Shown: piece by piece, positions 10,396-51,674 of the stretch | Position numbering within the stretch: the stretch's first letter is position 1 | How the letters are laid out: every line of letters begins with the position of its first letter | Source of the DNA: a virus | Reading direction: 5' to 3' (one strand) | Virus record (IMG/VR): IMGVR_UViG_3300009545_000018 | Coordinates: 51,224 to 115,223 of that record | Length of the DNA stretch: 64,000 nt | Position numbers and translations under genes: made by a program | The notes under the pieces: generated by a model | Databases searched by the model: none | What the model was told of the DNA's origin: nothing | Seen by the model: only the letters and a program-made list of their open reading frames with translations

Positions 10396-10896
10396 ATGCC
10401 ATATTCCCTAATCGTTGTAGATCTACAAAAAGAATTTACTGCCGCCAATAATATTTCCACCATTAATGCTTGTCAAAACTTATTGATCCAAGCTATGGAA
10501 GACAATGCAACGATCATCTTCTTAGAGTTTATTGGATGTGGTAGAACTATGGAAACCATCTATGATTTGGTAGATAACTATTATAATATATATGTTCTAA
10601 AGAAACCGAGCTGTGATGGAAGTTCTTATATTAAGAAACTGACAGCAAGTTTTGAAATACCTACCATGCACTTTAAAGTATGTGGTGTTAATACTGATGC
10701 TTGTGTATTAGATACTGTCTTAGGGTTAAGCCACAGTTATCCAGATGCAGTAGTTGAAGTTATTGAATCTGCCTGTAATTCAGATTTAGATCATAACAAA
10801 GCAATAAGTATAATGGAAAAGAAAAGCAATGTTGTGGTAACTAACAGACGAATTATTATAGAGCACGACACACTTAGAGTAGCTAATGTCAACTAA
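10396..10896 (+). CDS. isochorismatase-family cysteine hydrolase (nicotinamidase PncA-like)
   Basis: VVDLQKEF N-terminal motif and catalytic-Cys block VCGVNTDACV typical of the family. Confidence 0.6.
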   Translation: MPYSLIVVDLQKEFTAANNISTINACQNLLIQAMEDNATIIFLEFIGCGRTMETIYDLVDNYYNIYVLKKPSCDGSSYIKKLTASFEIPTMHFKVCGVNTDACVLDTVLGLSHSYPDAVVEVIESACNSDLDHNKAISIMEKKSNVVVTNRRIIIEHDTLRVANVN

Positions 10897-11293
10897 TATT
10901 TATATTATCATAGCGACTATTCTTTGGGGAGTGGGAGCCATTTTTACTAAGGTAGGCGCTAACAATTTACATCCTTTAATGTTAGCATTAGTGGCAGAAT
11001 TGTTCTATATAATATTTGTACCTTTAGGTATTTGGTTTACTAAAACTCCAATTCAAATGAACACTACGGGATTTATTTTTGGATTTATTTCGGCGGCATG
11101 TGTTGGGGCAGGGTCCTTAGCTTATTACTTTGCTTTGCAGAAGGGTGCTGCGGGCACCATTGCAGCAGCAACAAGTGTATACCCTGTGTTAACTTTAATT
11201 ATTTCCGTTGCAATTTTAAACGAAGAAATAAGTTTAAGAAAAATAATTGGCTGCCTTCTTGCTATTATTTCTGTTATTATTATTTCAAAATGA
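10886..11293 (+). CDS. small integral membrane protein, EamA/DMT-like (4 TM)
   Basis: Four hydrophobic helices, Gly-rich. Confidence 0.45.
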   Translation: MSTNIYIIIATILWGVGAIFTKVGANNLHPLMLALVAELFYIIFVPLGIWFTKTPIQMNTTGFIFGFISAACVGAGSLAYYFALQKGAAGTIAAATSVYPVLTLIISVAILNEEISLRKIIGCLLAIISVIIISK

Positions 11294-11607
11294 AATGTCC
11301 TATTTGTCAGAAATTATTATTAACTAATATTAATGAAAAATGGTGTGAACAAACCGTTTTTACTAATGATAGTGCAAATTTACATTATGTAGTTTTTAAT
11401 ATTAAAAATAATAATATGGCTTTATTTTTTAAATATAAAGATCATTCATATGAATTTGACTATTTTTCTTCATCTCAAAAAACAAATATAACATATTATA
11501 TGGGCAAAACTACTCATGATAGTGATTTTTATTTAGGGGAAATGAAAAATCTAGAAGAACTCTATAAGGCAACACTTAAGTATTTAAAAAACAAAGCATT
11601 CTTATGA
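11290..11607 (+). CDS. small protein, KLKAF-tail family variant, MKCPIC N-terminus (tail KNKAFL)
   Basis: Start set at the ATG overlapping the upstream TGA; the track's longer 11098 start lies inside the previous gene. Confidence 0.55.
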   Translation: MKCPICQKLLLTNINEKWCEQTVFTNDSANLHYVVFNIKNNNMALFFKYKDHSYEFDYFSSSQKTNITYYMGKTTHDSDFYLGEMKNLEELYKATLKYLKNKAFL

Positions 11608-11921
11608 TAATGAAATGTCCCTTTTGTAAAGAAGAACTACAATTAGGTATAGAAATATATTTTTGTAATAATGATAAATTTATTTATCATGATGTAAGTT
11701 TTAATACAATAACAAAAGATATACATTTAGCATTTTTATCAGAAAATAAAGAAATAGAATATGAATTTGAATATCTTTCAGATAAAAAACTTGTAAGTCT
11801 ATTTGTGTACTCTAACAATCCAGTTACAAGTTTTCTATCTTTAAATTTCGGGGAAATAAATTCTTTGGATGAATTTTATACTAAAACAAAATCTTACGTC
11901 AAAAATATAGCATTTCAATGA
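11604..11921 (+). CDS. small protein, KLKAF-tail family variant, MKCPFC N-terminus (tail KNIAFQ)
   Basis: ORF track. Confidence 0.55.
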   Translation: MIMKCPFCKEELQLGIEIYFCNNDKFIYHDVSFNTITKDIHLAFLSENKEIEYEFEYLSDKKLVSLFVYSNNPVTSFLSLNFGEINSLDEFYTKTKSYVKNIAFQ

Positions 11922-12640
11922 TTGAACAATTAAAAACATTATACAACACTTCTCCTCTTGCTTCTAACTGGATTAAAGAAAATGAACCTGATCCAAATCT
12001 TATTTATAACAGTGGAGTTGGGCATCAAGTTAAGCAAGGAATAGCATTATCTAACTTAGTTAGGTTTGATTTAGATGAGCCTAGGGTGGCAGCCACTCAT
12101 AGAAGTAAATCTTGCATACTTCCAGTCTTAATGTTTAAGGTTTGGCATTATGATAATGGAGGTGCCTTTTGCTTTATAAGAGATAATTTTCATGATGTCA
12201 AGCTATCAGTAGTATCTGAGTTTCCTATTGATATTAATTATAATTATATACATCATGAAATGTCTCAAGAAGAATATGATGCTGAAAAGAAACGCTGTAT
12301 TGATTATGATAATAAAGGAACTCCCAGATTAACTGAAGATGAGAAATCTGGAGATGGTTGGATAAATGGTTGGTCCGGCAATAAAATTATCAGGAAAGAT
12401 AATAAGATTTGGAAAGCCTATAACGTTAATGAAGTGTATTGTGAAGGCATTAATAGATTAAATTTGCCCAATGAAGTCTTTCGACCTTATGAAGAAGGTT
12501 ATGATATGTTTACAATTGCGGCAGGATCTTTTGCACATGTTGCTTATTTATTTGAACATCTTCAAAACGAAATACAACATAAGGTTTATTTAAAATTAAA
12601 ACAAATTAGGGATCAAAATGATAATCTCAAAAGTATGTGA
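11918..12640 (+). CDS. hypothetical protein
   Basis: ORF track. Confidence 0.5.
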   Translation: MIEQLKTLYNTSPLASNWIKENEPDPNLIYNSGVGHQVKQGIALSNLVRFDLDEPRVAATHRSKSCILPVLMFKVWHYDNGGAFCFIRDNFHDVKLSVVSEFPIDINYNYIHHEMSQEEYDAEKKRCIDYDNKGTPRLTEDEKSGDGWINGWSGNKIIRKDNKIWKAYNVNEVYCEGINRLNLPNEVFRPYEEGYDMFTIAAGSFAHVAYLFEHLQNEIQHKVYLKLKQIRDQNDNLKSM

Positions 12641-13103
12641 GAAAATTTCCAAAAGTTTGCCAGGTATAACTATTCGTTTGCCAAACCCTAAAACAAAAAT
12701 TAAACAAGATTATTTAAGTCGTTTCTATTTTTTCTTAGCTGATCGAGATTTTGGAAACATATTCTTACATCACTTTCATAGTTCAGATTTAGATGTAGGT
12801 GAAGGTGGATTTGGATTATTACATAATCATCCATTTTCCTGGTCATTATCATTTGTATTAGTCAATGGTTATTGGGAAGAAAGATTAAATCCAGACCAAA
12901 CAGTTTCACGAAGATTTGTTAAACCATTTTCTTTTAACTTCCTATCTCGTAAAGATTTCCATCGGGTAGACTTAGTTGATGGTAAAAAAGCTTGGACTAT
13001 ATTTTTTACTGGTTCCCGTTCTAGTCGTGGCAGTTGGGGATTTTATGATAGGATAACTAAACAATATAAAGACTTTACCACTTCACCTAATGCAATTAAA
13101 TAA
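12618..13103 (+). CDS. hypothetical protein
   Basis: ORF track. Confidence 0.45.
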   Translation: MIISKVCEKISKSLPGITIRLPNPKTKIKQDYLSRFYFFLADRDFGNIFLHHFHSSDLDVGEGGFGLLHNHPFSWSLSFVLVNGYWEERLNPDQTVSRRFVKPFSFNFLSRKDFHRVDLVDGKKAWTIFFTGSRSSRGSWGFYDRITKQYKDFTTSPNAIK

Positions 13104-13505: not shown

Positions 13506-13805
13506 ATGAACTGCCCCTTTTGTAAAAAATCTCTTATAAAAGAACCTGGCGGATATTTTTGTAAAAAAAACAAGACGCATGAATTTTCTATAGGTAACGA
13601 TCCGTCTTCTGTAAATGATGAACCATATTGGCTTTTATATATTCATGAAGATAAAATTCAGATAGGGAAATATCCAAAGGGTAATTATATTACTTTTAGA
13701 AATAGAGATGGCTTTGGTGGAGAAATAATTAATATTGATCCATTTTCAATAAAAGATTCCCACTCAATTATTAATAAATATAAAAAGTTAAAAGCCTTTT
13801 TATAA
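13506..13805 (+). CDS. small protein, KLKAF-tail family, MNCPFC N-terminus (tail KLKAFL)
   Basis: ORF track. Confidence 0.6.
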   Translation: MNCPFCKKSLIKEPGGYFCKKNKTHEFSIGNDPSSVNDEPYWLLYIHEDKIQIGKYPKGNYITFRNRDGFGGEIINIDPFSIKDSHSIINKYKKLKAFL

Positions 13806-15063: not shown

Positions 15064-16233
15064 ATGTCTATTGCAGATCTCTTAAATAAAAAGGTTCGTC
15101 TCTTCGTATTTGCCACAGGAGCGGGGGCAGGAGCCCAGAAAACATTATGGGACATTCCTGGATGTTCAAGTTTTCTTGTAGGAGCTGGATTTACATATGA
15201 TACTAAACTTACCTCTAAGATAATTGGATATACTCCAAAGCAATTTGCTAGTTTAGATACAGCCGCTGAATTAGCTATGGCAGCTTATATGGAAGCATAT
15301 GATCCCACTCTTAAAGATCATGATACAATTGGTATTGGTCTTTCAGCTTCTGTAGCATCAACTGTTGCACATAAGGGTGATCATAGAATACATTTAGTTG
15401 CAATTAGTAATAAAAAAGTTTATACTATTTCCTTTATTGTTAATAAAGGAACTGGTGAGCCTCAGAGAAAAAATGATGGTGAGATTGCTGATCGTCTTAT
15501 TATAGAAACTATAAAGGGCATTACTAATGTAAATGGATTAAGTGGTTTGGATTCATTTAAATATATGTATAGTGGTTCTTGTTATGTTTCTAACATAGTA
15601 AGTGATGAAAATTCTAGTATAGTTAAAGATTTATTATTACAACGTCCCTTCTTTAAATCTGATGGAACTAAATGTTCAACCAAAGATTTTTTTGGAGAGG
15701 TGACAGAATACCCAAATTATATTTTTTATCCTGGTAGTTTTAATCCGCTGCATCATGGACATTTAAATGCGGCGAAACAATCATATAAGACAGCAGTTCA
15801 TTTAAATGATAATGTTGAAGGTGTAATATTTACTACTTGTATTAATCCAAAACATAAAGCAGAACCAACAGTTCCAGAGTTACTACAGCGTATTAAACAG
15901 ATGCGAGGACATAATTTTCTACTTACAATGGATGACCCACTCTTTATTGATAAAGCAAAGATGTTTCCAGGGTCTATGATTACTATTGGAACTGATGTAT
16001 TATTATCTTTGTTTGACCCTAAGTGGGGAGTTGATGCAGTAGAAATGCTAGAAATATTTAGGGAAAACAATGTTCGGTTTCTAGTGCAGGGGCGTTTAGT
16101 TGATGATAAATTTGTTTCTTTGCGAAATGTTCGAGATCAAAATAAATTAATGCAAGATAATAAATACTATAAATTATTTGCGCATGTAGAAGGTAGGGTT
16201 GATATTTCTTCTACTGAACTTAGAAATAAATGA
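15064..16233 (+). CDS. two-domain protein: N-terminal unknown domain plus C-terminal nicotinamide/nicotinate mononucleotide adenylyltransferase (NMNAT/NadD-like)
   Basis: Nucleotidyltransferase motif FYPGSFNPLHHGHL and terminal ISSTELR characteristic of NadD/NMNAT. Confidence 0.6.
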   Translation: MSIADLLNKKVRLFVFATGAGAGAQKTLWDIPGCSSFLVGAGFTYDTKLTSKIIGYTPKQFASLDTAAELAMAAYMEAYDPTLKDHDTIGIGLSASVASTVAHKGDHRIHLVAISNKKVYTISFIVNKGTGEPQRKNDGEIADRLIIETIKGITNVNGLSGLDSFKYMYSGSCYVSNIVSDENSSIVKDLLLQRPFFKSDGTKCSTKDFFGEVTEYPNYIFYPGSFNPLHHGHLNAAKQSYKTAVHLNDNVEGVIFTTCINPKHKAEPTVPELLQRIKQMRGHNFLLTMDDPLFIDKAKMFPGSMITIGTDVLLSLFDPKWGVDAVEMLEIFRENNVRFLVQGRLVDDKFVSLRNVRDQNKLMQDNKYYKLFAHVEGRVDISSTELRNK

Positions 16234-16807: not shown

Positions 16808-16808
16808 T

Positions 16809-17387: not shown

Positions 17388-18530
17388 ATGCAAAGAAAAA
17401 GTATTACAGCACGTTCTAATTGGGAAAAAACTGTTGAGTCACAGGGGTTTCTTTTTCATTCAGTAGAGGGACAACCATATTGGGACGAGTCTCATTACTA
17501 TGAGTTTACTTCGTCCGAAGTAGATGAATTAGAAAAAGCCACCAATAATTTGCATGAGTTATGTTTAAATGCAGTTCAGCACGTTATTGATAATAATTTA
17601 TATTCTAAATTATTTATTCCACAACATGCCATACCATTAATTGAATCCTCTTGGAATAATGAGACTCCTGCTATTTATGGTAGGTTTGATTTATCTTATG
17701 ATGGTAAGTCTTCTCCGAAGATGTTGGAATATAATGCTGATACGCCTACTTCTCTATTAGAATCAGCAGTTATTCAATGGTATTGGTTGAAAGATCAGTT
17801 TCCTTCTTGTGATCAATTTAATTCCATCCACGAAAGATTAGTAAGTAAGTGGAAAGAATTAGGAGATTATTTAAATCCTGGACCATTATATTTAACTGGA
17901 CTTGATATGATTGAGGATTATATGAATCTTCAATATATGGCAGAGACCGCCAAGCAAGCAGGATTAGAAACTAAAGACATTAATATTGTTGATGTTGGTT
18001 GGGATTCTAAAGATAAAAAGTTTGTTGATAATGAATTTTATTCAATCACTAATGTCTTTAAATTGTATCCTTGGGAATGGTTATTGAATGAAGAGTTTGG
18101 TAAAAACATAGGCGAATGTTTTGATAAGACTTGTTGGATTGAACCCCCATGGAAAATGATTTTATCCAACAAAGGAATTCTTCCTATCTTATGGCAACTA
18201 AATCCTAATCATCCTAATCTATTACCGGCATTTTTTGATGATAAAAGTGTCTTGTTGAATAAGAGTTTAGTTAAAAAGCCGTTTTATTCTAGAGAAGGTG
18301 CTAACATTTCCATTGAAGAAAATGGGAAAATCATATCCAGTTCTGATGGTGAGTATGGAGAAGAAGGATTTATTTACCAGAAGTTTGCCCCATTACCTAA
18401 CTTTGATGGCAATCACCCTATGATTGGATCATGGGTTATTGATGGAGTATCTGCCGGAATTGGTATTCGAGAAGATAATAGTTTGATTACAGGCAACCTT
18501 AGTAGATTTGTGCCACATATATTTAAATAA
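17388..18530 (+). CDS. glutathionylspermidine synthase-like ATP-grasp family protein
   Basis: About 380 aa, matching stand-alone Gsp-synthetase-like proteins; recalled similarity only, no diagnostic motif verified. Confidence 0.45.
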   Translation: MQRKSITARSNWEKTVESQGFLFHSVEGQPYWDESHYYEFTSSEVDELEKATNNLHELCLNAVQHVIDNNLYSKLFIPQHAIPLIESSWNNETPAIYGRFDLSYDGKSSPKMLEYNADTPTSLLESAVIQWYWLKDQFPSCDQFNSIHERLVSKWKELGDYLNPGPLYLTGLDMIEDYMNLQYMAETAKQAGLETKDINIVDVGWDSKDKKFVDNEFYSITNVFKLYPWEWLLNEEFGKNIGECFDKTCWIEPPWKMILSNKGILPILWQLNPNHPNLLPAFFDDKSVLLNKSLVKKPFYSREGANISIEENGKIISSSDGEYGEEGFIYQKFAPLPNFDGNHPMIGSWVIDGVSAGIGIREDNSLITGNLSRFVPHIFK

Positions 18531-18992: not shown

Positions 18993-19290
18993 TATGTCTT
19001 TAGATAAAGTTTATCGTATAAAGTCTGTAAGAGAATACAATAGTTACGGTAGTAGTAAAAAATTTAAATTTAAAATACAAAGAAGAGTAAAATTTTTATT
19101 TATATCCATTTGGGTAGATGAGTTATCAGACACTTATGATACAATTCAAACAGCAGAAAATTATCTCAAATCTTATTTAGAAGATAAACATTTTATTAAA
19201 TACTTTTGTATTATAAGTAATTTTTCTGTTTTTGATGGCGAGACTTTAGTTGAATTAGAAAAGAAAACTAAATTAAAGGCATTTCTATAA
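18970..19290 (+). CDS. small protein, KLKAF-tail family (KLKAFL)
   Basis: ORF track. Confidence 0.55.
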   Translation: MFILLKNNMSLDKVYRIKSVREYNSYGSSKKFKFKIQRRVKFLFISIWVDELSDTYDTIQTAENYLKSYLEDKHFIKYFCIISNFSVFDGETLVELEKKTKLKAFL

Positions 19291-19571
19291 TGTACAGAAT
19301 AGTCTGGGATCCTGAATATCATTATATTATACAAAAAAGATTTTTATATTTCTTTTGGTATACAATACGATATGATGGTGCATTATGTATTTCTTATTCG
19401 AAAAGAGAGCATGCAGAAGAAGTTTTAGAAAAATATATTGATAAAAAGAACTTGCAAAAATCTGGAATAAATCCAGATATAAAATATTATTTAAATAGTA
19501 ATAATAAATTGTTATCTGGAGATACTATTAATGAAGTAAATAAAAAGAGTAAGTTAAAGGCATTTTTATAA
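19290..19571 (+). CDS. small protein, KLKAF-tail family (KLKAFL); paralog of 19571-19846
   Basis: Shared MYRI...ERRFLYFFW block. Confidence 0.6.
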   Translation: MYRIVWDPEYHYIIQKRFLYFFWYTIRYDGALCISYSKREHAEEVLEKYIDKKNLQKSGINPDIKYYLNSNNKLLSGDTINEVNKKSKLKAFL

Positions 19572-20994: not shown

Positions 20995-22650
20995 ATGAAT
21001 GATTATTACAACTTATTAAATACTTGTGCTAAGCCTGTTCCTGGATTAAAGACAAAAGCTATTGCTTTTTATGATGATTATAATTATCCGGTTTATTCAG
21101 AAGATACTTTTAAACCAGTAACTCAAAAAGCTAAATCTATTATCAATGGTATTACTTTACTTGAAAAGATAGATTTAAACAAATATGTTTCTTTAAGAGA
21201 GAATGTTGGAACAAAAGTTATTTGTTCCAGACTCTTAGAGCTAATTCAAGATCCAACAGATATTTCTCATCTTCCAGCTAAGTTCTGGGACGTGCATTTT
21301 CCTATCTTTGCTAGACCTTGTCCTTTAAAGCCTCGTCATGGATTCATAGATAGCAGAGTTATTTCGACTAAATCAGAATTAGAGAAATTACTTTCGGAAG
21401 TTAAATCAGTAGATCCAAAAGGCGAAATCATTTTAATGCCTTTTATTAAAGCTGATTATAATGCTATCTTGTGTAATAGCGGATACTTATCAATTGGTCC
21501 TGGTCATGACGGAGCTACTGCCGGCAATAATTCAGTTTCTTTTCCGGTAGCTCCAGCTAAAATTACTCAAAAAGTAAAGTTTAAATCTGGTTTGTCTTCA
21601 AAATCAACCGTTTTTATTGAGGCTGTCTTTAAAAAGCGTCGTTCGGCAAAACGTTTTGATTATGAATATAGTGTTAATAAATCATTTTTTATTACACAAC
21701 TACGTGGTGGTCCACCAGTTAGTGCGATGAATGATTTTATTCCAGAAAGAATGGATGTTAAAAAAGTAGTTATTCCACATAATAACTTATTAAAATGGGA
21801 GGCAGAAACTAAAAAATTCCCTAAAGGTACAGTTGTGTATGGTAAAGGTCATACTTTAGCTAGTCATGCAGCTATTCACTGCGCCATTAATAAAATACCG
21901 TTTATTACTTCTTTTGAGCCTCATGTTGGTGACAGTATTGCTCCTACCGCAATTAGTAAAGTAAAGTTTAATAAACAACAATTTTTACGTGGAGTTACAG
22001 CCGCTTTAGTTTCTAAAGTTAGTAAAAGAAAAATGCTGCACTTTGCAGCAGTGATACTCCATAATTGGAACTATCTTTCTACTTCAGAACATTCATCTTG
22101 GTTATTAGGCATAGCATCAGTTTATCTTTCGAAAATTTTATGTGCCTTATCATATGGTGAGTATCGGCATTGCCATGGAAAAACTTTAAAATTTAAGAAG
22201 ATTAAATCTTCCCGAACTAGAGGATCTATTTACTCTACCGTTATGGATGAAAAATCTTTTAGTTATTACATTAGAAATGCTTATAAAATTAAAAAAGAAT
22301 TTCAATCCAAAGCCAAATTTCGTCGGGGCTATGGTGGTAAGTTATGGGCAAATGCAGTTAAGCAATCCATTAATATCTGGAATACCATTGCTCTTATTCA
22401 AGATTCTAAAAACCTTACAACATCAAAAATTAAAAGCCTAATTAGTTTAGTTAACAAATCTATTAATTTAGTTCATAATAATGGTTGGTTATTTAATAAA
22501 ATAAGTGACAAATCGACTATGACAAAAATATCTGAACAACCAGGTCTTTCAGCGCTGGAATTAGCAGATGTATTTTATGAGCATTTACAAAAAGTAAATT
22601 CTACTAAAAAATTAAAACCTTTAACTAAAGTAAATCTTACAGAAAAATAA
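20995..22650 (+). CDS. large hypothetical protein (551 aa)
   Basis: ORF track; no motif recognised. Confidence 0.5.
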   Translation: MNDYYNLLNTCAKPVPGLKTKAIAFYDDYNYPVYSEDTFKPVTQKAKSIINGITLLEKIDLNKYVSLRENVGTKVICSRLLELIQDPTDISHLPAKFWDVHFPIFARPCPLKPRHGFIDSRVISTKSELEKLLSEVKSVDPKGEIILMPFIKADYNAILCNSGYLSIGPGHDGATAGNNSVSFPVAPAKITQKVKFKSGLSSKSTVFIEAVFKKRRSAKRFDYEYSVNKSFFITQLRGGPPVSAMNDFIPERMDVKKVVIPHNNLLKWEAETKKFPKGTVVYGKGHTLASHAAIHCAINKIPFITSFEPHVGDSIAPTAISKVKFNKQQFLRGVTAALVSKVSKRKMLHFAAVILHNWNYLSTSEHSSWLLGIASVYLSKILCALSYGEYRHCHGKTLKFKKIKSSRTRGSIYSTVMDEKSFSYYIRNAYKIKKEFQSKAKFRRGYGGKLWANAVKQSINIWNTIALIQDSKNLTTSKIKSLISLVNKSINLVHNNGWLFNKISDKSTMTKISEQPGLSALELADVFYEHLQKVNSTKKLKPLTKVNLTEK

Positions 22651-24982: not shown

Positions 24983-25456
24983 ATGAAGTATTCAAAAGAA
25001 TTACTATCTAAACTAGTTTCTGAATGTACTACTGTTGCAGAGCTAATGAGAAAGTTAGGACTCCAACAATCTGGAGGAACACATTCATTTTTAACTAAAA
25101 GAATAAAATCATTTAGTATTGACACATCTCATTTTGTTGGTTCTGCTTTTAATGCGGGACTAAATCATGTAGGCGGTCCAGAGAAACTATGTTCAACAGA
25201 TGTTTTAGTCCTAGATAGGCTTAACGGTCAAAGAGAGAAATCTTTTAGATTAAAGAGAGCATTATTAGAATCTAACATAAAAGAAGAGTGTGAACAATGT
25301 GGTGTGAGTACTATTTGGAATAATAAACCAATTACACTTCATATTGATCATAGAGATGGTAATGGTCTAAATAATTGTATAGAAAATTTAAGGTTCCTTT
25401 GTCCTAATTGTCATTCTCAAACGGACAATTATGGATCTAAAAATATTGGAAAATAA
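24983..25456 (+). CDS. HNH homing endonuclease
   Basis: C-terminal HIDHRDGNGLNN...NLRFLCPNCH HNH motif; directly upstream of lysS with ATGA overlap. Confidence 0.7.
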   Translation: MKYSKELLSKLVSECTTVAELMRKLGLQQSGGTHSFLTKRIKSFSIDTSHFVGSAFNAGLNHVGGPEKLCSTDVLVLDRLNGQREKSFRLKRALLESNIKEECEQCGVSTIWNNKPITLHIDHRDGNGLNNCIENLRFLCPNCHSQTDNYGSKNIGK

Positions 25457-27075
25457 TGTCAGAAGAATCCCTTATAGAAACCCGTCGCCAGAAGCATATT
25501 AAAGCTAATGGTGGAACTTACCCCATTGCTAATGATAGTAATTCAATTGATGATATCATTGGGCATAATTTAATTATGCGGTTTAAACAACCAGAATCTG
25601 ACATTAAAACAACTATCTGCTTCTCTGATTTAGAAGGAGAAGAACTCGTTAAGGTTCATGGCAGACTAACCAGTATCAGAAATACTGGCGGCATTACTTT
25701 TCTTAAAATTAAAGATAATACTGGTGCAATACAAATAATTGTTTCAAAAAAAGAATTATCTAATTATAAAGATTTAGCTAATTTAGATTTAGGCGACATT
25801 GTTGAAGTCGAAGGTAAAGTGGTTTTTTCTAAGACCAAAGAATTATCGGTTCTTATGTCTAGCTGGATCTTATTGTCTAAAGCTATTAGACCTTTACCAG
25901 AAAAATATCATGGCATTACAGATGTAGAATTAAAATATCGCAAGAGATATCTAGATTTAATTTGTTCGGATGAGTCAAGAGAGATCTTTAAATTAAGGTC
26001 ACTTGTTATTTCTTCCATAAGAAATTTTTTAATTCAGGACGGTTTTATGGAAGTAGAGACTCCAACATTAAATATAGTTAATAGTGGGGCTAATGCCAAA
26101 CCATTCCAGACACACCACAATTCTTTAGATATGGATCTTAATTTGAGAATTGCTCCGGAGCTTAATCTCAAGCGATTAATTGTGGGAGGATTTGATAAAG
26201 TATTTGAAATTGGTAAGAATTTTCGTAATGAAGGGCTGTCTACTAGACATAATCCAGAATTTACTATGCTTGAATTTTATGAGGCTTATAGTAATTTTGG
26301 TAATTTAATAGATAAAACAATGCGGCTTTTCAATTATATTGAGGGTGATTTAGAAACTTACTATCAAAGTAAACCAGAAGAAAAAGTATTATTTGATAAA
26401 TGGAAAACTGCTCGCCCCTTTTCTTTTTCCTTTTGGAAAGAATTACCTATGTGGGATTTAGTACTTCATGCTTGTAATAAAGCAGAAATATTAATTCATC
26501 ACGGAATTCATCCTCTAGTAAAAGACAGCCCAACAGATGGTGCTCCTTTATTAGAAAGAATTAATTTAAATAATGAAAGATTATTAAAAATTGATTGGAA
26601 AGATTTGTTAGACAAATTAAATCTGGAAAAAGATAATGGTCAAATAATAGGATTATTATTTGAATATCTTGCTGAACCATTTCTTACTGAAGATTATAGA
26701 ACTGCTGATGGTACACATTCTTTGCCAGTCATTGTAACGCAATTCCCCACAGAGCTTTGTCCTTTAGCCAGAGCTTATGATAAAGCCCCAACATTATGTG
26801 AGCGTTTTGAGCTTTACATAGATGGCAAAGAAATTGCTAATGCCTTTCAAGAACTTAATGATCCAGTAGAACAAAGAAAAAGGTTTGATGAACAGCTAGT
26901 AAGCAATCAAAGAGATGCTATGGATATCGACAATGATTACATTGAAGCTTTAGAATATGGCATGCCTCCAACTGTTGGTTTGGGTCTAGGAATAGATCGT
27001 TTGGTAATGTTATTAACTAATTCATCATCCATTAAAGATGTAATTTTATTTCCTACAATGAAGCCATTAAAGTAA
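25456..27075 (+). CDS. lysS: lysyl-tRNA synthetase, class II
   Basis: Class II motif 2 FRNEGLSTRHNPEFTMLEFYEAY, motif 3 GLGIDRLVMLLT, N-terminal OB anticodon-binding region. Confidence 0.85.
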   Translation: MSEESLIETRRQKHIKANGGTYPIANDSNSIDDIIGHNLIMRFKQPESDIKTTICFSDLEGEELVKVHGRLTSIRNTGGITFLKIKDNTGAIQIIVSKKELSNYKDLANLDLGDIVEVEGKVVFSKTKELSVLMSSWILLSKAIRPLPEKYHGITDVELKYRKRYLDLICSDESREIFKLRSLVISSIRNFLIQDGFMEVETPTLNIVNSGANAKPFQTHHNSLDMDLNLRIAPELNLKRLIVGGFDKVFEIGKNFRNEGLSTRHNPEFTMLEFYEAYSNFGNLIDKTMRLFNYIEGDLETYYQSKPEEKVLFDKWKTARPFSFSFWKELPMWDLVLHACNKAEILIHHGIHPLVKDSPTDGAPLLERINLNNERLLKIDWKDLLDKLNLEKDNGQIIGLLFEYLAEPFLTEDYRTADGTHSLPVIVTQFPTELCPLARAYDKAPTLCERFELYIDGKEIANAFQELNDPVEQRKRFDEQLVSNQRDAMDIDNDYIEALEYGMPPTVGLGLGIDRLVMLLTNSSSIKDVILFPTMKPLK

Positions 27076-31608: not shown

Positions 31609-31621
31609 TTGGAGATTTAAG

Positions 31622-32512: not shown

Positions 32513-32517
32513 AAAAT

Positions 32518-32826: not shown

Positions 32827-32837
32827 GATTTAAATAA

Positions 32838-35269: not shown

Positions 35270-35665
35270 ATGAAAGATATTTGTAATATGCAAATTAAAA
35301 TGTTTAAATCTAAAATTCATCGTGCTACCTTAACTGGAGCAAATCTCGAATATGAAGGATCAATTAAAATTGATTCTGATCTTTTAGATGCTGCTAATAT
35401 ACTTGAATATGAATCAGTTTATGTATGGAATATTAATAATGGTAATAGGTTAATGACATACACTTTACGAGGTGAAGCTGGTTCAGGCATTGTAGAATTA
35501 AATGGCAGTGCTGCCAGATTAGGTCATAAAGGTGATTTAATAATCATTACTACCTTTGCTGACATGACCCCCTTAGAAGCTAAAGAATTTAAACCTACTG
35601 TTGTTTTAGTAGATTCTTTTAATAAAGTTAAATCTATATCAGATAGATCAGGCGGATTAACATGA
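35270..35665 (+). CDS. panD: aspartate 1-decarboxylase
   Basis: KIHRATLTGANLEYEGSIKID...NGSAARLGHKGDLIIITTF closely parallels PanD including the pyruvoyl-forming GS site; true start may be 35288. Confidence 0.85.
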   Translation: MKDICNMQIKMFKSKIHRATLTGANLEYEGSIKIDSDLLDAANILEYESVYVWNINNGNRLMTYTLRGEAGSGIVELNGSAARLGHKGDLIIITTFADMTPLEAKEFKPTVVLVDSFNKVKSISDRSGGLT

Positions 35666-41666: not shown

Positions 41667-42419
41667 TCATAGTAATCCGCCTTGTAAGTGATTTATAATT
41701 TTTGAAGTTGTTTCAGTTAATGGTATAAAGAACTTAACTTGATTATATTTAGTATATAATTCATTACCATACTGTATTAGTTTTTCTATTTCTTCTTTAG
41801 GGCTATCAGCATTTACAGATAATATTTCATTCTTAAAAATTAAAAATTTACTACTATGTTCAGCATATACCCTAACTTCATTTTGTTGTTCTGCATAATT
41901 ATTCATAGCCTTATTTAATTCTTTGGTTGTCTTTGCTAAATATGCAGTATCATTATTTTGTTTAGCAACAGCCACATTATTTATCAAATTTTCAAATAAG
42001 ATATTTTTTTCGGACATTAATTTTCGTATAATTGATTTTTTTATTTCATGTTTTTGTGTAGCAATTCTGGTTTGCAACTGTAAACATAGCCCTTCTAAGT
42101 TATTTGATTTTTTTATTTCTCTTAGTTTGGTTGCTATTTCCTTATTTTTATTTTGTCTTTCAATAAATTTTGGATGATTTTCTAGCTCTAAATTTATCAG
42201 CTGTAATTCTTTTTCTAAATCTTGTTTTTTTGCCGGATCTATTTCGTTTTTTAAAAGTTGTAAAACTATTTTTTTACGATTTAATAATTCAGATCCATCA
42301 TAAAACTTTGATAAATATTTTCTTTGTCTTTCTTTTGCTTTAGAACGATATAAAGATCTTTTATTAGGATCCATCATAATTTTTTTATATTGTTCTTTTC
42401 TTTTATCTATTTTGGGCAT
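41667..42419 (-). CDS. coiled-coil protein, paralog of the C-terminal half of 42423-43808
   Basis: Shared blocks (QTRIATQK, NKAMNNYAEQQNEVRVYAEHS) with the upstream minus-strand gene. Confidence 0.55.
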   Translation of the reverse strand: MPKIDKRKEQYKKIMMDPNKRSLYRSKAKERQRKYLSKFYDGSELLNRKKIVLQLLKNEIDPAKKQDLEKELQLINLELENHPKFIERQNKNKEIATKLREIKKSNNLEGLCLQLQTRIATQKHEIKKSIIRKLMSEKNILFENLINNVAVAKQNNDTAYLAKTTKELNKAMNNYAEQQNEVRVYAEHSSKFLIFKNEILSVNADSPKEEIEKLIQYGNELYTKYNQVKFFIPLTETTSKIINHLQGGLL

Positions 42420-42422: not shown

Positions 42423-43808
42423 TTATAATTTGCTTTGCAAATAGCTAACGATTTGAGATGTTGTATCTACAACAGTTTTAAAAAATTTAACTTGTTGGTA
42501 ATTCATACAAAGTTCTTTGCCATTATCAATTAGTGCTTGCACAGCAGGTTTAGCCTCTTCTGGTACGCCAGAATCTAACCAACCTAATTTATTTAATTCT
42601 TTAACTTGATCTTTGTAAGCTTTGAATTTCAAACTATGTTCAACATATACTTTAACTTCATTTTGTTGATCGGCATATGCACTCATTGCCTTATTTAATT
42701 CTTTTGTGGCAGCTGTTAATGCTACAGTATCATTTGCTTCTTTAGCTTTTTCAATAGCGTCTAATTGTGGCTTAAACATAGAATCTTTATTGGCTAATAA
42801 TTTATCAGTTATACTTTGTTTTACTACAATTTTTTGAGTGGCTATTCTTTGTTGTAAATGAGTTAATAAACCATCTAAATTACCACTTTCTTTAACATTT
42901 CTAATCTTTGTAGCAACATCCTTATTCTTATCATGGCGTCTTAGAAAGTCTTTTTGTTTTTGTAGCTCTTGATCTATTTCCAATAACTCTTGTTCTAGTT
43001 TGTGAGTCTTTTCAACACTAGTTTCATTTTTAAGCATTCTGATAATCAATTCTTTACGAGCTTGTAAATCAGTACCAGATTTAAATTTTTCTAAATATTT
43101 CGCTTGTCTTTCTTTAGCTTTAGTACGATAAATTCCTTTTTTAATAGGATCATCCATTATATCTCTGTATAATTTACGACGAGATTCGATATAAGAACGA
43201 TATTGTGGATGGTTAGGATTTAGTTTTTTTAAAGCCATTAGGTTTTCAAACCAGCGTTTTTTAGCTTCTAAATTTTGTCTAACTTTATCTCCAGTCCAAG
43301 TAATGTTTTTGTCGCCCTTATCAATGCCTTGTTGATTAAACTCTTTAGCTAATTGGGCAGCTTTCATATCAGAAATTTCAAAGTCTTCACCAGCAAAAGA
43401 CTTTAATTTATTAGCGGCATCATCATATACTTGTACTACAAAGGTTAAGAAGTCGGCAGGATTAAAGTTTTCGTCCCATCCTTGTTCTTCTGTTAGATTA
43501 AAGTATGGATTTTTAATGATTCTTTCTAATCTTTTTTCTAGAGTTGTTAAGAGTTCACCAGCATCTTCGAAGTTTTCTGGGTCTAAATGTTCTGAATCTG
43601 TCTTAAGAGTATTCATTAGCTCTTTATATCCAGACATGAATGTCTCAAATTGTTGAAACAGCTCTTCATCTCTAATATCATAATCTTCAGATTTGGTTAA
43701 AATATCTGCAACTGAAGCTGCTATTTTAACCATATGATACTCAAAATGAGCATCAATGGAGAATTTTTCTATACGATTGACAAGTTGTGCTAGTTTATCC
43801 ATCTTCAC
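42423..43808 (-). CDS. large coiled-coil protein (461 aa)
   Basis: Minus-strand ORF; C-terminal 250 aa paralogous to 41667-42419. Confidence 0.55.
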   Translation of the reverse strand: MKMDKLAQLVNRIEKFSIDAHFEYHMVKIAASVADILTKSEDYDIRDEELFQQFETFMSGYKELMNTLKTDSEHLDPENFEDAGELLTTLEKRLERIIKNPYFNLTEEQGWDENFNPADFLTFVVQVYDDAANKLKSFAGEDFEISDMKAAQLAKEFNQQGIDKGDKNITWTGDKVRQNLEAKKRWFENLMALKKLNPNHPQYRSYIESRRKLYRDIMDDPIKKGIYRTKAKERQAKYLEKFKSGTDLQARKELIIRMLKNETSVEKTHKLEQELLEIDQELQKQKDFLRRHDKNKDVATKIRNVKESGNLDGLLTHLQQRIATQKIVVKQSITDKLLANKDSMFKPQLDAIEKAKEANDTVALTAATKELNKAMSAYADQQNEVKVYVEHSLKFKAYKDQVKELNKLGWLDSGVPEEAKPAVQALIDNGKELCMNYQQVKFFKTVVDTTSQIVSYLQSKL

Positions 43809-45741: not shown

Positions 45742-46932
45742 ATGCAAGTAATATATACTGGTGAAAAAATACCTAAGAAGATAACGAAATCAATATTTTT
45801 GGCTGGACCATCTGCTCGTCCTGGACAAGAAGATGAAGTAGCTCATTGGCGTCATGATGCTATTAAGATCTTAGAAGATAAGGGGTTTGACGGAGTAATA
45901 TTTAGTCCAGAAAATAGGGACGGTTCTTTTGGTAAGGATTTTGATTATGATGATCAAATAGATTGGGAAGATGAGTGTCTTAATATTGCTGATTGTATTT
46001 TGTTTTGGGTTCCACGAGATTTATCACTAGATTCTAATGGTAATTTGAAATTAGGAGGACTTACAACTAATGTGGAATTTGGCGCATGGTGTAATTCTGG
46101 CAAAGTATTATTTGGTGCTCCCCCTAAAGCAGATAAAGTAAGATATTTACAACGTTATGCTGATACCTATAATTTAGGTAATTATGAAAATTTAACGGAA
46201 CTATTACAGGCAGCTATAGATAAATTGGGAAATGGCGCTGAAAGAAATGAGGGGGAAAGATATGTTCCATTAATGATTTGGAATACTCCATCTTTTCAAT
46301 CTTGGTATACAGCGCAAACTAATGCTGGTAATGTCTTAGAGACTGCCAAATTATTATATTCTTTTCGACCCGGGTTTAAAGACTTTGTATTTCTCTGGAT
46401 TCTTAAAGTTGAAGTTTATATTACATCAGAAAAAAGAAGCAAAACAAATGAATTTGTTCTCGCCAGAACAGATACATCTTCTGTTGTTATGTGGTATCCA
46501 GAAGGTGAATCTATTGAGGAGAATTTAGTTGTCTTAATAAAAGAATTTAGATCTCCAGCATCTACGGAAGATGGTTTCATTTATGAAAATGCCGGCGGAT
46601 CTTCTCATAATCCAAAAGAAGATGCTTTTGACACTGCTATTGAAGAAGTACACGAGGAGACAGGGCTTATGATTGATAGTAAAAGATTAAAATCAATGCA
46701 ATCTAGACAAGTCTGTGGAACATTATCTTCTCATAAAAATTATTTATATTCTTATCAATTAAATAAAGAAGAATTAGATTGGCTAAAATCTCAAGATGGA
46801 ATTGCTCATGGAGTAGAAGAAGATACGGAAAGATCTTTTGTTACTATTTCTAGTGTGGGAGAAATATTGCAAAGCACTAATGTAGATTGGGCTAATTTGG
46901 GCGCTATATTATCAGTAATAGTTAAAAATTAA
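45742..46932 (+). CDS. fusion protein: N-terminal nucleoside 2-deoxyribosyltransferase-like domain plus C-terminal Nudix hydrolase domain
   Basis: N-terminal FLAGP...WE...ADCILFW resembles the NDT / deoxyribonucleotide-N-hydrolase fold; C-terminal Nudix-box remnant AIEEVHEETGL. Confidence 0.5.
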   Translation: MQVIYTGEKIPKKITKSIFLAGPSARPGQEDEVAHWRHDAIKILEDKGFDGVIFSPENRDGSFGKDFDYDDQIDWEDECLNIADCILFWVPRDLSLDSNGNLKLGGLTTNVEFGAWCNSGKVLFGAPPKADKVRYLQRYADTYNLGNYENLTELLQAAIDKLGNGAERNEGERYVPLMIWNTPSFQSWYTAQTNAGNVLETAKLLYSFRPGFKDFVFLWILKVEVYITSEKRSKTNEFVLARTDTSSVVMWYPEGESIEENLVVLIKEFRSPASTEDGFIYENAGGSSHNPKEDAFDTAIEEVHEETGLMIDSKRLKSMQSRQVCGTLSSHKNYLYSYQLNKEELDWLKSQDGIAHGVEEDTERSFVTISSVGEILQSTNVDWANLGAILSVIVKN

Positions 46933-48600: not shown

Positions 48601-50181
48601 TTGATTATGGTATCTAAAAATTTATTTAAGTCTACAGGTTCAGTTAAGAAAGCAATTAAACCAGTTAATGCTGTTAATAATGCGGGCGGTGTGGCTTATA
48701 CTATGGATGATAAGGCTGCCTTAGCGCAACTTGCCATGACTGGTTGTTTTAATGGAACTTATTATGTTGATGCTAAAGATCAACTTAATCAAGTTGTTGC
48801 TCTTGCTAATAAGCTTCCAGTAGAGTTCGTGGCAAAGTTAGCAGTATATGCTCGCCAAGAAGGTTTTATGAAGGATATGCCTGCAGTATTAGCCGCAGTT
48901 GTTGCTAGCAAAGATACTGTTCTTTTATCCAAGATCTTTCCAAAGGTTATTGATAATCCAAAAATGGTTCGTAACTTTGTACAAGTTATTCGTTCTGGAG
49001 TAACAGGCAGAAAAAGTTTGGGAACCCGTCCTAAGAAATTAATTCAAAATTATTTGAATTCATTAACTGATGAGCAGTTGTTTAAGGCTGATGTAGGTAA
49101 TAGCCCTTCATTACAAGATATTATTAAGTTAGCTCGTCCTAAGCCAGCTACTAAGAATCGCTCTGCTTTGTATGGTTATTTGCTAGACAAGGAATATAAT
49201 CCAGAAGACTTATGTTCCTTGGTTCAAGAGTTTGAATCTTTCAAAAAAGAAATGAGTTTGGATATTCCAAATGTTCCATTTCAAATGTTAACAGCTTTGC
49301 CATTAACTGATAAGCATTGGAGCAAGATTGCTGAAAATGCAACCTGGAATCAAACCAGAATGAATTTAAATACTTTTGCTCGTCATAAGGTATTTGAAGA
49401 TGCTACTACTTTAAACCTATTGGCTGAGAGATTAGCTGATTCTTCACAAATTGCAAAAGCAAAGGTATTCCCATATCAATTGTTTGCTGCATTTAAAAAT
49501 GTAACTGCAGATGTTCCTAAGAAATTAACTAATGCTTTACAAAAAGCAGCGGATGCTTCGCTGGAAAATATTCCAGCTATTGAAGGTGAAGTTCACGTTT
49601 TAGTTGATGTATCAGGCAGCATGAGTAGCCCAGTCACTGGTAATCGTGGTTTTGTCACTAGTACTATGCGTTGTATTGATGTAGCAGCCTTAATGGCTTC
49701 TGCATTAATGCGCAAGAATGAAGATACTAAGGTATATCCATTTGATACTAGAGTTCATAATCATTCATTGAATCCAATGGATTCAGTGATGACTAATGCG
49801 GCAACTCTTGCTGCATTTGGTGGTGGAGGAACTGATTGTGGTATGGCGTTAGAGAATTTAAATAAGCAGAAAGCCAAAGGCAATCTTGTTATTTATGTTT
49901 CTGATAATGAGTCTTGGGTAGATACTACTCCTAATTCCTATTATTCTCAAAGAGGTACTAAGGTAATGGAAGAGTGGAATAAATATAAAGCTCGTAATCC
50001 AAAAGCCAAATTGGTTTGTATTGATGTCACTCCTAATAAAACCACTCAAGCTCATAATAGAGAAGATATAATCAACATTGCAGGATTTTCTGATCAAGTA
50101 TTCGATGTTATTGCATTATTCCAAAAATTTGGCAATAATAAAGATCTTTGGGTTCAAACCATTGACTCAGTAGAAATGTAA
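48601..50181 (+). CDS. rsr: Ro60-like TROVE-domain protein with C-terminal vWA (MIDAS) domain (Rsr ortholog)
   Basis: N-terminal TROVE-like region (NAGGVAY...TGCFNGTYY), C-terminal MIDAS VLVDVSGSMS; 526 aa like bacterial Rsr; SD AAAGGAGATTGATTATG. Confidence 0.6.
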   Translation: MIMVSKNLFKSTGSVKKAIKPVNAVNNAGGVAYTMDDKAALAQLAMTGCFNGTYYVDAKDQLNQVVALANKLPVEFVAKLAVYARQEGFMKDMPAVLAAVVASKDTVLLSKIFPKVIDNPKMVRNFVQVIRSGVTGRKSLGTRPKKLIQNYLNSLTDEQLFKADVGNSPSLQDIIKLARPKPATKNRSALYGYLLDKEYNPEDLCSLVQEFESFKKEMSLDIPNVPFQMLTALPLTDKHWSKIAENATWNQTRMNLNTFARHKVFEDATTLNLLAERLADSSQIAKAKVFPYQLFAAFKNVTADVPKKLTNALQKAADASLENIPAIEGEVHVLVDVSGSMSSPVTGNRGFVTSTMRCIDVAALMASALMRKNEDTKVYPFDTRVHNHSLNPMDSVMTNAATLAAFGGGGTDCGMALENLNKQKAKGNLVIYVSDNESWVDTTPNSYYSQRGTKVMEEWNKYKARNPKAKLVCIDVTPNKTTQAHNREDIINIAGFSDQVFDVIALFQKFGNNKDLWVQTIDSVEM

Positions 50182-50189
50182 GCAGGTAT

Positions 50190-50510
50190 ATGCAAATGAA
50201 AATTGTTGAGCATAGATTTGGAAAATATACAGCTCATGAGCCGCAAGAATGTTATTTTGCCGTAGTGGAACCAAATATGGAAGATTATCCGCCCGTACTT
50301 ATTTTTATTTCAGATAAAGAGACTTGGGATAAAAATAAATATACTGGGGATGTTAAGTTTGAAGACGGAATTCTTCCAGAAGAATTTGTGGAGTGGGTAG
50401 AGTCTGTTTATGAATCAAATTCTACGTCGCAAGAAATAAAAGAGGCTTTACTAAAAGTAGGCTTTACTTATTGTCAAGAGATGGAGTCTTGTATAGAAGA
50501 GTATAATTAA
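50190..50510 (+). CDS. hypothetical protein; paralog of 51908-52213
   Basis: Shared ECYF...EDYP..VLI...WDKN blocks. Confidence 0.5.
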   Translation: MQMKIVEHRFGKYTAHEPQECYFAVVEPNMEDYPPVLIFISDKETWDKNKYTGDVKFEDGILPEEFVEWVESVYESNSTSQEIKEALLKVGFTYCQEMESCIEEYN

Positions 50511-50514
50511 ACTA

Positions 50515-50838
50515 ATGAAAACCATGTTGTTTGAAAAAACTATTAATTTAGTTAAAACTTTAAGAGAAACATTCACAACTCGATGTTTACATAATCAAAA
50601 ATTGCCCCTTTTTAGTTGGTTACATAGAAATTCTAGTAACTTTTCGAATGAAGAGTTTGAAGAGTTTTGGAAATTTTTAGTAATTTTATTTAAATATAAA
50701 TATAAGGATATGAGCTTATTTTATGAAGCAGGAGAGTCTCCATTAGAAATGTTTGATTTTAGAGCAAACAAAGATCAAATCAATGACTTTATTTCTTTAT
50801 TAGAAAATAAAATTAATAAATTGAAAGCTTTTATTTAA
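50515..50838 (+). CDS. small protein, KLKAF-tail family (KINKLKAFI); paralog of 52210-52497
   Basis: Identical tail KINKLKAFI. Confidence 0.55.
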   Translation: MKTMLFEKTINLVKTLRETFTTRCLHNQKLPLFSWLHRNSSNFSNEEFEEFWKFLVILFKYKYKDMSLFYEAGESPLEMFDFRANKDQINDFISLLENKINKLKAFI

Positions 50839-51674
50839 TGATTAAAAGAAATGGTATTGAAATTAAGACTGCCCAAGCTCCAAATATAGTAGCAGCAAAA
50901 GATACTTTAAATATTCTTAAGAATAAAAATTATCTTGTTAAAGATAAGATCATAGATATTTCAGTGGCATTAGATAATTCAATTAAAAATACTAAGTTAT
51001 ATTTGCCAGAAGATTGTTTTAATAGTAAAAATAATTTAATTAAACCTACTATAGAGGTAACAAATGAAACTACTACCTCTGCTGGGTTAAGATTATTAAA
51101 TAGTGGTTTAGAAAATATTGTAGCTTTGAATTTTGCCTCAGCTAGAAATGTTGGGGGCGGATTTTTAGCGGGGGCAGTTGCCCAAGAAGAAGATTTGTGT
51201 CGGTGTTCTGGATTATATCTTTGTATTAAAAGCAAACCTATCTTTTATAATAAAAACATTTTATGTGATGATACTTTCTATACTAATCATATTATTTACT
51301 CACCCAATGTTCCTTTCTTTCGTAATGATAATCTAGATCTTTTAGAAGAGATATTCCACATTTCTATTATTTCTGCGCCCGCACCTAATGTTAGAGCTAT
51401 GGAGAATGTTGATGAAGATAATTTAAGAAGCATATTAGAAATAAGGGCAGCTAGAATTTTACAGATTGCTATTGAAAATAATCATGAAAATATTATCTTA
51501 GGAGCTTGGGGCTGTGGTGCTTTTGGTAATGATTCTAAAATGATAATTGAGGTTTTTCAAAAGGTATTAAATAGATATCCTCATTTCAAACATGTTTGTT
51601 TTGCCGTCTTTGATAATAAAATAAATGCCCCTATTTTCAATGCATTTAAAGAAGCATTTGAAAATAATGAATGA
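50838..51674 (+). CDS. bacterial-type poly(ADP-ribose) glycohydrolase (macrodomain, DUF2263-like)
   Basis: PARG signature GGG-x7-QEE (VGGGFLAGAVAQEE) in a macrodomain-sized protein. Confidence 0.65.
   Translation: MIKRNGIEIKTAQAPNIVAAKDTLNILKNKNYLVKDKIIDISVALDNSIKNTKLYLPEDCFNSKNNLIKPTIEVTNETTTSAGLRLLNSGLENIVALNFASARNVGGGFLAGAVAQEEDLCRCSGLYLCIKSKPIFYNKNILCDDTFYTNHIIYSPNVPFFRNDNLDLLEEIFHISIISAPAPNVRAMENVDEDNLRSILEIRAARILQIAIENNHENIILGAWGCGAFGNDSKMIIEVFQKVLNRYPHFKHVCFAVFDNKINAPIFNAFKEAFENNE

Follow-up and report, generated by a model that had tools for sequence, protein, structure and literature searches.

Three phage pathways that reconstitute nicotinamide adenine dinucleotide (NAD+) are known. 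NARP1 is a gene pair encoding Adps (Prs-like) and Namat (Nampt-like), NARP2 comprises the KVP40 Nampt and a Nmnat-Nudix protein of the NadM type, and NARP3 comprises the PnuC transporter and a bifunctional NadR-like enzyme; the known NARP genes form operons. Here we compare these systems with five open reading frames (ORFs) in a 64-kb stretch of a viral genome (IMG/VR record IMGVR_UViG_3300009545_000018, positions 51,224 to 115,223; hereafter the window), which a preliminary description had read as a dispersed gene set for NAD+ salvage and ADP-ribose (ADPR) turnover. Among jumbo phages, Macro domains occur in 56%, Nudix domains in 45%, NadV in 33% and cREC domains in up to 18%, and Bacillus phage G encodes at least ten ADP-ribosyltransferases (ARTs) (Iyer et al. 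2022, PMC9503650). Because the published rates are this high, several such genes in a phage of about 400 kb are expected and do not make it an outlier.

All five ORFs are present on the plus strand: ORF1 (10396-10896), ORF2 (15064-16233), ORF3 (30275-30694), ORF4 (45742-46932) and ORF5 (50838-51674). The proposed convergence on NAD and ADPR chemistry held for ORF5, ORF4 and ORF2 and was not supported for ORF1 and ORF3. On balance, the five appear to be independent enzymes of a huge-phage toolkit and not the steps of one pathway. Such a gene content is ordinary for a jumbo phage, and the general phenomenon has been published (PMC7824862, PMC9503650 and the NARP papers). The substrates and the directions of flux proposed below are predictions drawn from homology, motifs, modelled folds and phyletic patterns.

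Sequence setting and searches

The sequence read amounted to 84 kb, made up of the window and 10 kb beyond each end, from a genome of 399-448 kb. Pfam was run on every window ORF of at least 60 aa, NCBIfam, PHROGs and PADLOC were run on the larger ORFs without assignment, and phage comparisons were made against 50,697 phage records. Contigs L008, L013 and L016 served as relatives, and contigs L006 and L007 carry the left and right flanks, respectively.

The window has a GC content of 26-33% and 13 tRNA genes, and its ORFs are nearly all short and on the plus strand. A megablast search with 20 kb of the window gave no DNA-level match to the phage records. The nearest named relatives of several window proteins are those of Bacillus phage G (497 kb), and other proteins match metagenomic huge phages (485-642 kb) and Lak megaphages. 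We infer that the window is a non-structural, mostly co-directional gene block from a phage-G-like huge phage, an assignment of the source that stays qualified because the window contains no structural genes.

Poly(ADP-ribose) glycohydrolase

ORF5 (50838-51674, 278 aa) is unambiguously a bacterial-type poly(ADP-ribose) glycohydrolase (PARG) macrodomain, as first described. It scores 151 bits against Pfam PARG_cat_microb (PF10021, cut-off 23.5) and 246.9 bits against TIGR02452 (cut-off 50), and is homologous over its full length to T. curvata PARG (PDB 3SIG, E 2e-51), with D. radiodurans PARG (5ZDA) matched at 1e-46. The peptide GGGFLAGAVAQEE at aa 106-118 (nt 51153-51191) is an exact GGG-x7-QEE catalytic loop, and the diphosphate-binding loop GAWGCGAFGN lies at aa 222-231 (nt 51501-51530). 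Both loops are intact and align to T. curvata PARG. ORF5 keeps the catalytic loop and the GAWGCGxFGN loop of the bacterial-type enzymes, and differs from them in being encoded by a huge phage. It would hydrolyse ribose-ribose bonds, releasing ADPR from chains or conjugates. The window showed no sign of a PARP-like polymerase.

The occurrence of a PARG in a phage had been singled out as noteworthy. It is rare, being found in 20 of the 50,697 phage records, but it is not new, as these include phage G (gp114), Lak megaphages and a few metagenomic huge phages. The protein is unnamed in all 20 records, most of which lack any annotation, and the homologs in the phage G and Lak genomes have remained unannotated. 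Relatives L008 and L016 have no PARG at the syntenic position, and the gene is accessory, not part of the lineage core.

DrHyd-Nudix protein

ORF4 (45742-46932, 396 aa) encodes a two-domain protein. Its N-terminal domain (about aa 1-165, nt 45742-46236) is of the DrHyd, or nucleoside-2-deoxyribosyltransferase-like, type and matches Nuc_deoxyri_tr2 (PF15891) at 43 bits (cut-off 30). E112, which lies within the sequence TTNVEFG, a (T)TxxExG motif, is invariant in the family. The C-terminal domain (about aa 185-396, nt 46294-46932) resembles Nudix hydrolases of the NDP-sugar or ADP-ribose pyrophosphatase (ADPRase) type. Pfam NUDIX gives no match in ORF4 itself and matches only some family members; the Nudix-box residues E302, E305 and E306 are invariant in an alignment of 24 sequences. 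In Foldseek searches with the structural model (predicted local distance difference test, pLDDT, 88), the top 50 matches to the C-terminal 210 aa are NudF, NUDT5, YffH and related NDP-sugar hydrolases (E down to 5e-11, TM 0.65-0.76), with the ADPRase N-terminal beta domain included. A search with the family profile finds ADPR and ADP-sugar pyrophosphatases, and also an uncharacterised PF15891 structure, 4MCJ (E 9.5e-5). A marker of ADPRases is a proline some 16 residues downstream of the Nudix box, and no proline occurs in the 22 residues that follow EETGL in ORF4. The description of a deoxyribosyltransferase-like domain fused to Nudix is borne out for both halves, the first through PF15891 and not PF05014, and the second through fold and invariant glutamates and not through Pfam.

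ORF4 is an ortholog of Bacillus phage G gp334 (AEO93593.1), to which it is 48.5% identical over the full length; the two-domain architecture is the same and there is no difference in kind. Iyer et al. 2022 cited gp334 as a phage DrHyd domain of the ADP-ribosyl cyclase (ARC) type (PMC9503650). New for gp334-type proteins, which had been noted before, are the NudF/NUDT5-like fold predicted for the Nudix half and the size of the family (777 homologs, about 58% identity). The gene order in relatives is fixed, with a Dam methyltransferase gene followed by ORF4, three small ORFs and a gene for a Ro60-like protein. ORF4, which belongs to the lineage core, adjoins Dam methylase and FEN genes in the window, and in phage G its ortholog gp334 is flanked by DNA polymerase III genes. 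The Ro60/TROVE-vWA protein (48601-50181), encoded three small genes downstream of ORF4, is conserved in all relatives examined; an RNA ligase gene follows it in the relatives and is missing from the window.

The DrHyd domain would cut an N-glycosidic bond in a nucleotide, possibly NAD+ or an ADPR derivative, and the Nudix domain would split free ADPR or a related ADP-sugar to AMP and ribose-5-phosphate. Removal of ADPR polymers and of free ADPR, which the preliminary description proposed, is a reasonable deduction from the homology of ORF5 to 3SIG and from the NudF/NUDT5 fold of ORF4. A different role for ORF4, which we consider very improbable, is that of a take-over enzyme consuming NAD+, in which an NADase or ADP-ribosyl cyclase activity of the DrHyd domain precedes degradation of the ADPR by the Nudix domain. 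In that case the phage would turn host NAD+ into nicotinamide, AMP and ribose-5-phosphate to feed its own nucleotide synthesis, which is the opposite of regeneration. Consistent with this are the placement of gp334's DrHyd domain among the ADP-ribosyl cyclases (Iyer et al. 2022), the fusion of a putative NAD+ glycohydrolase to an ADPRase fold, and the strong conservation of the protein, which suggests a central metabolic role. However, the sole structural relative found for the N-terminal domain is the uncharacterised protein 4MCJ, and the NMNAT-type enzyme of the same phage would oppose the destruction of NAD+.

NadD-type adenylyltransferase with a PncC-like domain

ORF2 (15064-16233, 389 aa) combines an N-terminal domain of the CinA/PncC fold (about aa 1-160, nt 15064-15543) with a C-terminal HIGH nucleotidyltransferase domain of the NadD/NMNAT type (about aa 215-389, nt 15706-16233). 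It matches Pfam CTP_transf_like at 34.7 bits and contains the motifs HHGH (aa 230-233, nt 15751-15762) and ISSTELR (aa 381-387, nt 16204-16224). Among 36 family members, H230-x-G232-H233, S383 and R387 never vary, and S382 and T384 are almost as constant. NMNAT and phosphopantetheine adenylyltransferase (PPAT) both carry the HxGH and ISSTxxR motifs, which do not discriminate between them. Scores against the NCBIfam NadD models fall far below cut-off (NF000840, 27.4 bits against 150; TIGR00482, 26.2 against 112) and are about equal to that against the CoaD model (26.6 bits), and the substrate assignment therefore rests on fold ranking and on the fusion partner. In the structural model (pLDDT 91.7), the closest neighbours of the C-terminal domain are NMNAT/NadD and not other HIGH nucleotidyltransferases; PPAT (8.2), NadR (6.1-6.7), NadM (6.2) and archaeal NMNAT (5.8) are farther away. 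ORF2 is unlikely to be a PPAT because a genuine CoaD (TIGR01510, 176.7 bits) is encoded elsewhere in the window, at 55947-56441. Adenylylation by ORF2 of nicotinamide mononucleotide (NMN) or nicotinic acid mononucleotide (NaMN) is plausible, and would yield NAD+ or nicotinic acid adenine dinucleotide (NaAD). The original NMNAT call stands as regards motifs and fold, and is not backed by the NadD equivalog models.

The N-terminal domain, previously listed as unknown, has the fold of the CinA C-terminal domain, that of NMN deamidase, although its score against Pfam CinA (16.3 bits) is below the gathering score of 23.5. Residues matching the substrate-binding G46, S48, Y58 and R145 of AtCinA are invariant in the 36-member alignment. 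The nucleophilic serine (S31 in AtCinA, position 18 in ORF2) is Thr or Ser, mostly Thr, in most family members, and the catalytic lysine (K63 in AtCinA, K61 in EcPncC, position 50 in ORF2) gives way to Thr, Met or Leu throughout the family. Because of these changes, canonical Ser/Lys deamidase chemistry is doubtful. ORF2 shares the fold of the PncC/CinA NMN deamidases (E. coli PncC; A. tumefaciens CinA, 2A9S) but does not keep their Ser/Lys dyad. Binding of a pyridine mononucleotide is plausible, and is the more probable role of the domain than canonical deamidation.

The two-domain family of ORF2 comprises 2,274 representative clusters (E up to 0.001) from bacteria and plants and is uncharacterised. 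It occurs in one of the 50,697 phage records. In bacteria, the genes around it encode photolyase-related proteins, glycosidases and an MFS transporter, and a literature search on the plant homolog found nothing. The position of ORF2 shifts between relatives. New here are the identity of the N-terminal domain and the assignment of ORF2 to the NadD/NMNAT type, unlike the NadM-type enzyme of NARP2 and the NadR-type enzyme of NARP3; CinA, PncC and NadD are mentioned in neither of the Iyer papers. A glutathionylspermidine-synthase-like (preATP-grasp) protein encoded at 17388-18530 (505 bits) is conserved downstream of ORF2 in relative L013. The distant relative L008 encodes, about 700 nt ahead of its ORF2 homolog, a 179-aa Nudix protein with an N-terminal zinc ribbon (L008:8790-9329). 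This protein aligns to the NADH pyrophosphatase NudC over both zinc ribbon and Nudix domain, and no homolog of it was found in the window.

Isochorismatase-like hydrolase and stand-alone Nudix hydrolase

ORF1 (10396-10896, 166 aa) had been described as an isochorismatase-family hydrolase of the nicotinamidase type. Membership of the superfamily is supported by a D9-K70-C103 triad, invariant in seven homologs, and by a PF00857 score of 26 bits, just under the cut-off of 27; NCBIfam gave no match. The triad is a feature of the superfamily and is not specific to nicotinamidases. PncA/Pnc1 nicotinamidases also have an Asp/His/His metal site between strand 2 and the catalytic lysine. This site is missing from ORF1, which has no histidine in aa 1-91 and no conserved histidine in its family. 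An hhalign comparison with E. coli PncA gave a probability of 30% over only 36 columns around the cysteine strand, and among PDB entries a generic isochorismatase-family protein matches best (E 0.026). The seven homologs are confined to close relatives, and no phage record matches. Downstream there is always a gene for a half-size EamA/DMT membrane transporter (10886-11293, plus strand, 135 aa, EamA 67.8 bits), and the overlapping pair is also found in relative L013 and in the source contig. As the start of the EamA gene overlaps the end of ORF1, a functional partnership is likely. ORF1 shares the Asp-Lys-Cys triad with PncA but lacks the metal site and is coupled to a transporter gene. It is not a demonstrable nicotinamidase, and a link to NAD is unsupported.

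ORF3 (plus strand) is a stand-alone Nudix hydrolase with its Nudix box at nt 30371-30439. It scores 67.7 bits against NUDIX and 100.8 bits against phrog_1198, and its best NCBIfam and PDB matches are NTP pyrophosphatase families of the MutT type. A NudE-type assignment, after T4 NudE, was rejected, as the match reached only 34 bits and was confined to the Nudix box. The gene probably starts at ATG 30275 (139 aa) and not at TTG 30245 (149 aa); a 46%-identical ortholog in relative L008 starts at ATG and precedes LemA. The Nudix call is upheld, ORF3 is MutT-like, and a role as an NAD or ADPR enzyme is not supported. A cluster of membrane-protein genes (LemA, SPFH/Band 7 and TPM domain; 30715-33965) directly follows ORF3, which is always found ahead of LemA/TPM, and the order Nudix-LemA-TPM is kept in L008. 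ORF1 with its EamA partner, and ORF3 beside LemA and TPM, would belong to other functions.

NAD+ reconstitution

The preliminary description held that the five genes together could regenerate NAD+ from nicotinamide or NMN. Scans with Pfam, NCBIfam and PHROGs of window ORFs of at least 60 aa found no Nampt/Namat, PncB, NadE, Prs/Adps, PnuC, NadR, ART, sirtuin or further macrodomain, and the flanking 10 kb at both ends likewise yielded no Nampt, Namat, Adps, PncB, NadE, PnuC or NadR. PADLOC defence models gave only a generic Nudix match in the window, and Pfam searches of the ORFs of 60-124 aa found EamA and two weak, unrelated matches only. With these enzymes missing, and ORF1 devoid of the metal site, NAD+ regeneration from nicotinamide has no enzymatic basis in the window. 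The steps represented are the last one, from NMN or NaMN to the dinucleotide, and the disposal of ADPR. Taken together, these activities would clear ADP-ribosyl marks and free ADPR and would replenish NAD from mononucleotides.

The five genes are not a co-inherited module, as they differ in phyletic pattern, position and synteny. Neighbouring members are separated by 3.9-15 kb and 6-29 ORFs; phage G has PARG and ORF4 but not ORF2, and LR745208 has ORF2 and ORF4 but not PARG. Further domains of this kind are encoded in the flanks. A cREC cyclic-phosphate-processing domain protein (L006:139-450, 99 bits) lies about 200 nt left of the window start, and a kinase of the NadR-RNK Pfam family AAA_28 (L007:14500-15057, 47.7 bits) and a NADAR protein (L007:19817-20249, 137.6 bits) lie about 4 kb and 9.3 kb right of the window end. 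The genome is rich in ADPR-processing domains, as are those of jumbo phages generally.

A dispersed counter-defence pathway that rebuilds NAD+ after the action of NADase defences (Thoeris, DSR, SIR2-HerA) and removes ADPR, as first proposed, now seems unlikely. Its route would resemble NARP2, leading from ADPR through AMP and ribose-5-phosphate, phosphoribosyl pyrophosphate and NMN to NAD+, with the missing nicotinamide phosphoribosyltransferase coming from the host or from another part of the phage genome. The window does contain non-orthologous forms of two of the three NARP2 activities (an ADPRase-like Nudix and an NMNAT-type enzyme), the AAA_28 kinase, NADAR and cREC genes flank it, accessory and patchy genes such as PARG are typical of counter-defence, and NadV is present in a third of jumbo phages. 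Against this stand the lack, in the window and the flanks read, of Nampt, Namat, Adps, PncB, NadE, PnuC and NadR and the failure of ORF1 to qualify as a nicotinamidase; even a true nicotinamidase would channel nicotinamide towards reactions that depend on PncB and NadE. The similarity of the AAA_28 kinase to E. coli NadR is marginal (22 bits, with no PDB match), and the spacing of 4-15 kb contrasts with the operons of known NARP genes.

Comparison with each pathway leads to the same picture. The Adps and Namat domains of NARP1 were not found in window ORFs of at least 60 aa or in the flanks. Like NARP2 and NARP3, the phage has a pyridine-mononucleotide adenylyltransferase and a Nudix of the ADPR-pyrophosphatase type; unlike them, its adenylyltransferase is fused to a PncC-like domain and not to a Nudix or kinase domain, and no Nampt, PnuC or NadR is found in the window. 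It also differs from NARP2 in that the adenylyltransferase is of the NadD and not the NadM type and the ADPRase-like Nudix is on a separate protein, 30 kb from ORF2. The NARP3 components PnuC and NadR are absent from the window, and the resemblance of the AAA_28 kinase outside it to the NadR RNK domain is marginal.

It is improbable that ORF2 is the first phage representative of a fourth class of enzymes that restore NAD+, forming with the AAA_28 kinase a split, non-orthologous counterpart of NARP3, while PARG and the DrHyd-ADPRase protein destroy ADPR-based immune signals. If so, the PncC-like domain would capture NMN or NaMN for the NadD/NMNAT-type adenylyltransferase. The linkage targeted by PARG, a 1''-2' ribose-ribose bond, would be that found in the Thoeris signal 2'cADPR, and the DrHyd-ADPRase fusion would act on the same ADPR-based signals as PARG.

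Several points weigh against our preference for independent enzymes. The 84 kb read is part of a genome of 399-448 kb, and a Nampt or NadE gene elsewhere would make the pathway real. NudC produces NMN, the presumed substrate of ORF2, and the NudC-like Nudix upstream of the ORF2 homolog in L008 hints at more functional linkage than independent genes would have. ORF2 itself is far below the NadD equivalog cut-offs and scores about as well against CoaD, and the substrate of the DrHyd domain could be a deoxynucleotide, which would place that half of ORF4 outside NAD chemistry.

Cofactor and nucleotide metabolism

A second cofactor theme is represented by dispersed genes for dephospho-CoA kinase (coaE, 2549-3148, 181 bits), aspartate decarboxylase (panD, 35270-35665, 154 bits) and the phosphopantetheine adenylyltransferase CoaD mentioned above, which argues for general metabolic augmentation. 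These genes bear on the doubtful alternative that the set as a whole is auxiliary housekeeping, by which the phage supplements host cofactor and nucleotide supply and does not oppose defence. NMN is a by-product of NAD-dependent ligase, and in cells PncC normally recycles it. ORF2 would recycle NMN from an NAD+-dependent DNA ligase during massive replication, the Nudix proteins would sanitise or reshape nucleotide pools, and PARG would reverse ADP-ribosylation by the phage's own ARTs. Besides the coenzyme A genes, the window encodes a lysyl-tRNA synthetase, the 13 tRNAs, the glutathionylspermidine-synthase-like protein and an aminotransferase, all of which would suit such a role. So would the lineage-core status of ORF4 (about 58% identity) and its location near Dam methylase and FEN genes, or near DNA polymerase III genes in phage G, as well as the MutT-like nature of ORF3, the numerous ARTs of phage G and the wide distribution of the ORF2 family in bacteria and plants. 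However, scans of the window detected neither an NAD+-dependent ligase nor an ART, PARG is accessory and not core, and in the argument of Iyer et al. the main role of phage proteins with Macro, NADAR and Nudix domains is to counter host ADPR-derived signals (PMC9503650).

Other features of the window

Throughout the window, 27 small plus-strand ORFs end in a common C-terminal peptide, approximately K-[LM]-K-A-F-[ILV]-stop (for example 657-932, 13506-13805, 19290-19571, 50515-50838 and 61335-61610). Phe makes up only 5.4% of all residues but is penultimate in 46 of 120 plus-strand ORFs. Synonymous variation among the codons suggests a peptide-level signal, perhaps a degron or a targeting or packaging tag. 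The peptide recurs in 13 of 43 ORFs of the close relative L013 and is missing from L008 and phage G; in the comparison with these two, one paralog family ends instead in EYEIEY[KV]. Several of the ORFs with the peptide begin with a CxxC zinc ribbon, which recalls the zinc-ribbon expansion of about 35 copies reported for phage G.

The lysyl-tRNA synthetase (25456-27075) is a full-length class II enzyme. The 13 tRNA genes span 9433-63919, and ARAGORN reads the one at 56990-57079 with a four-base anticodon (gttt). There are three probable homing endonuclease genes, one of the GIY-YIG/NUMOD3 type on the minus strand (6631-7305), one that is HNH-like by eye and has no profile match (24983-25456), and one of the DUF559/MTES_1575 family (57431-58399) within a tRNA-rich stretch (56990-60316).

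PHROGs searches with ten large ORFs lacking assignment gave a single, unrelated match, to a cysteine-dioxygenase-like family (phrog_4786, annotated as cysteine dioxygenase; 12618-13103, 161 aa, 96.9 bits). A 551-aa ORF at 20995-22650 has no match in Pfam, NCBIfam, PHROGs or PADLOC; as read from its sequence, GHTLASHAAIHCAINKIPFIT recalls the phospho-histidine mobile domain of PEP-utilising enzymes. Only four plausible genes are on the minus strand. They include two adjacent look-alike Lys/Glu-rich ORFs (41667-42419 and 42423-43808) with no family match.

Conclusions

Bacterial immunity against phages relies centrally on NAD+ depletion and ADP-ribose signalling. The main effect of our analysis is to correct an over-reading, as the gene set of this phage falls short of a complete salvage pathway. 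It also indicates that the largest phages carry non-orthologous parts for this chemistry, namely a NadD-type enzyme with a PncC-like domain, a fusion of a NudF-like ADPRase with DrHyd, and a true PARG. If the counter-defence activity of these proteins proves true, they would widen the NAD+ repertoire of phages and would be candidate enzymes for the degradation of ADPR-derived signals.

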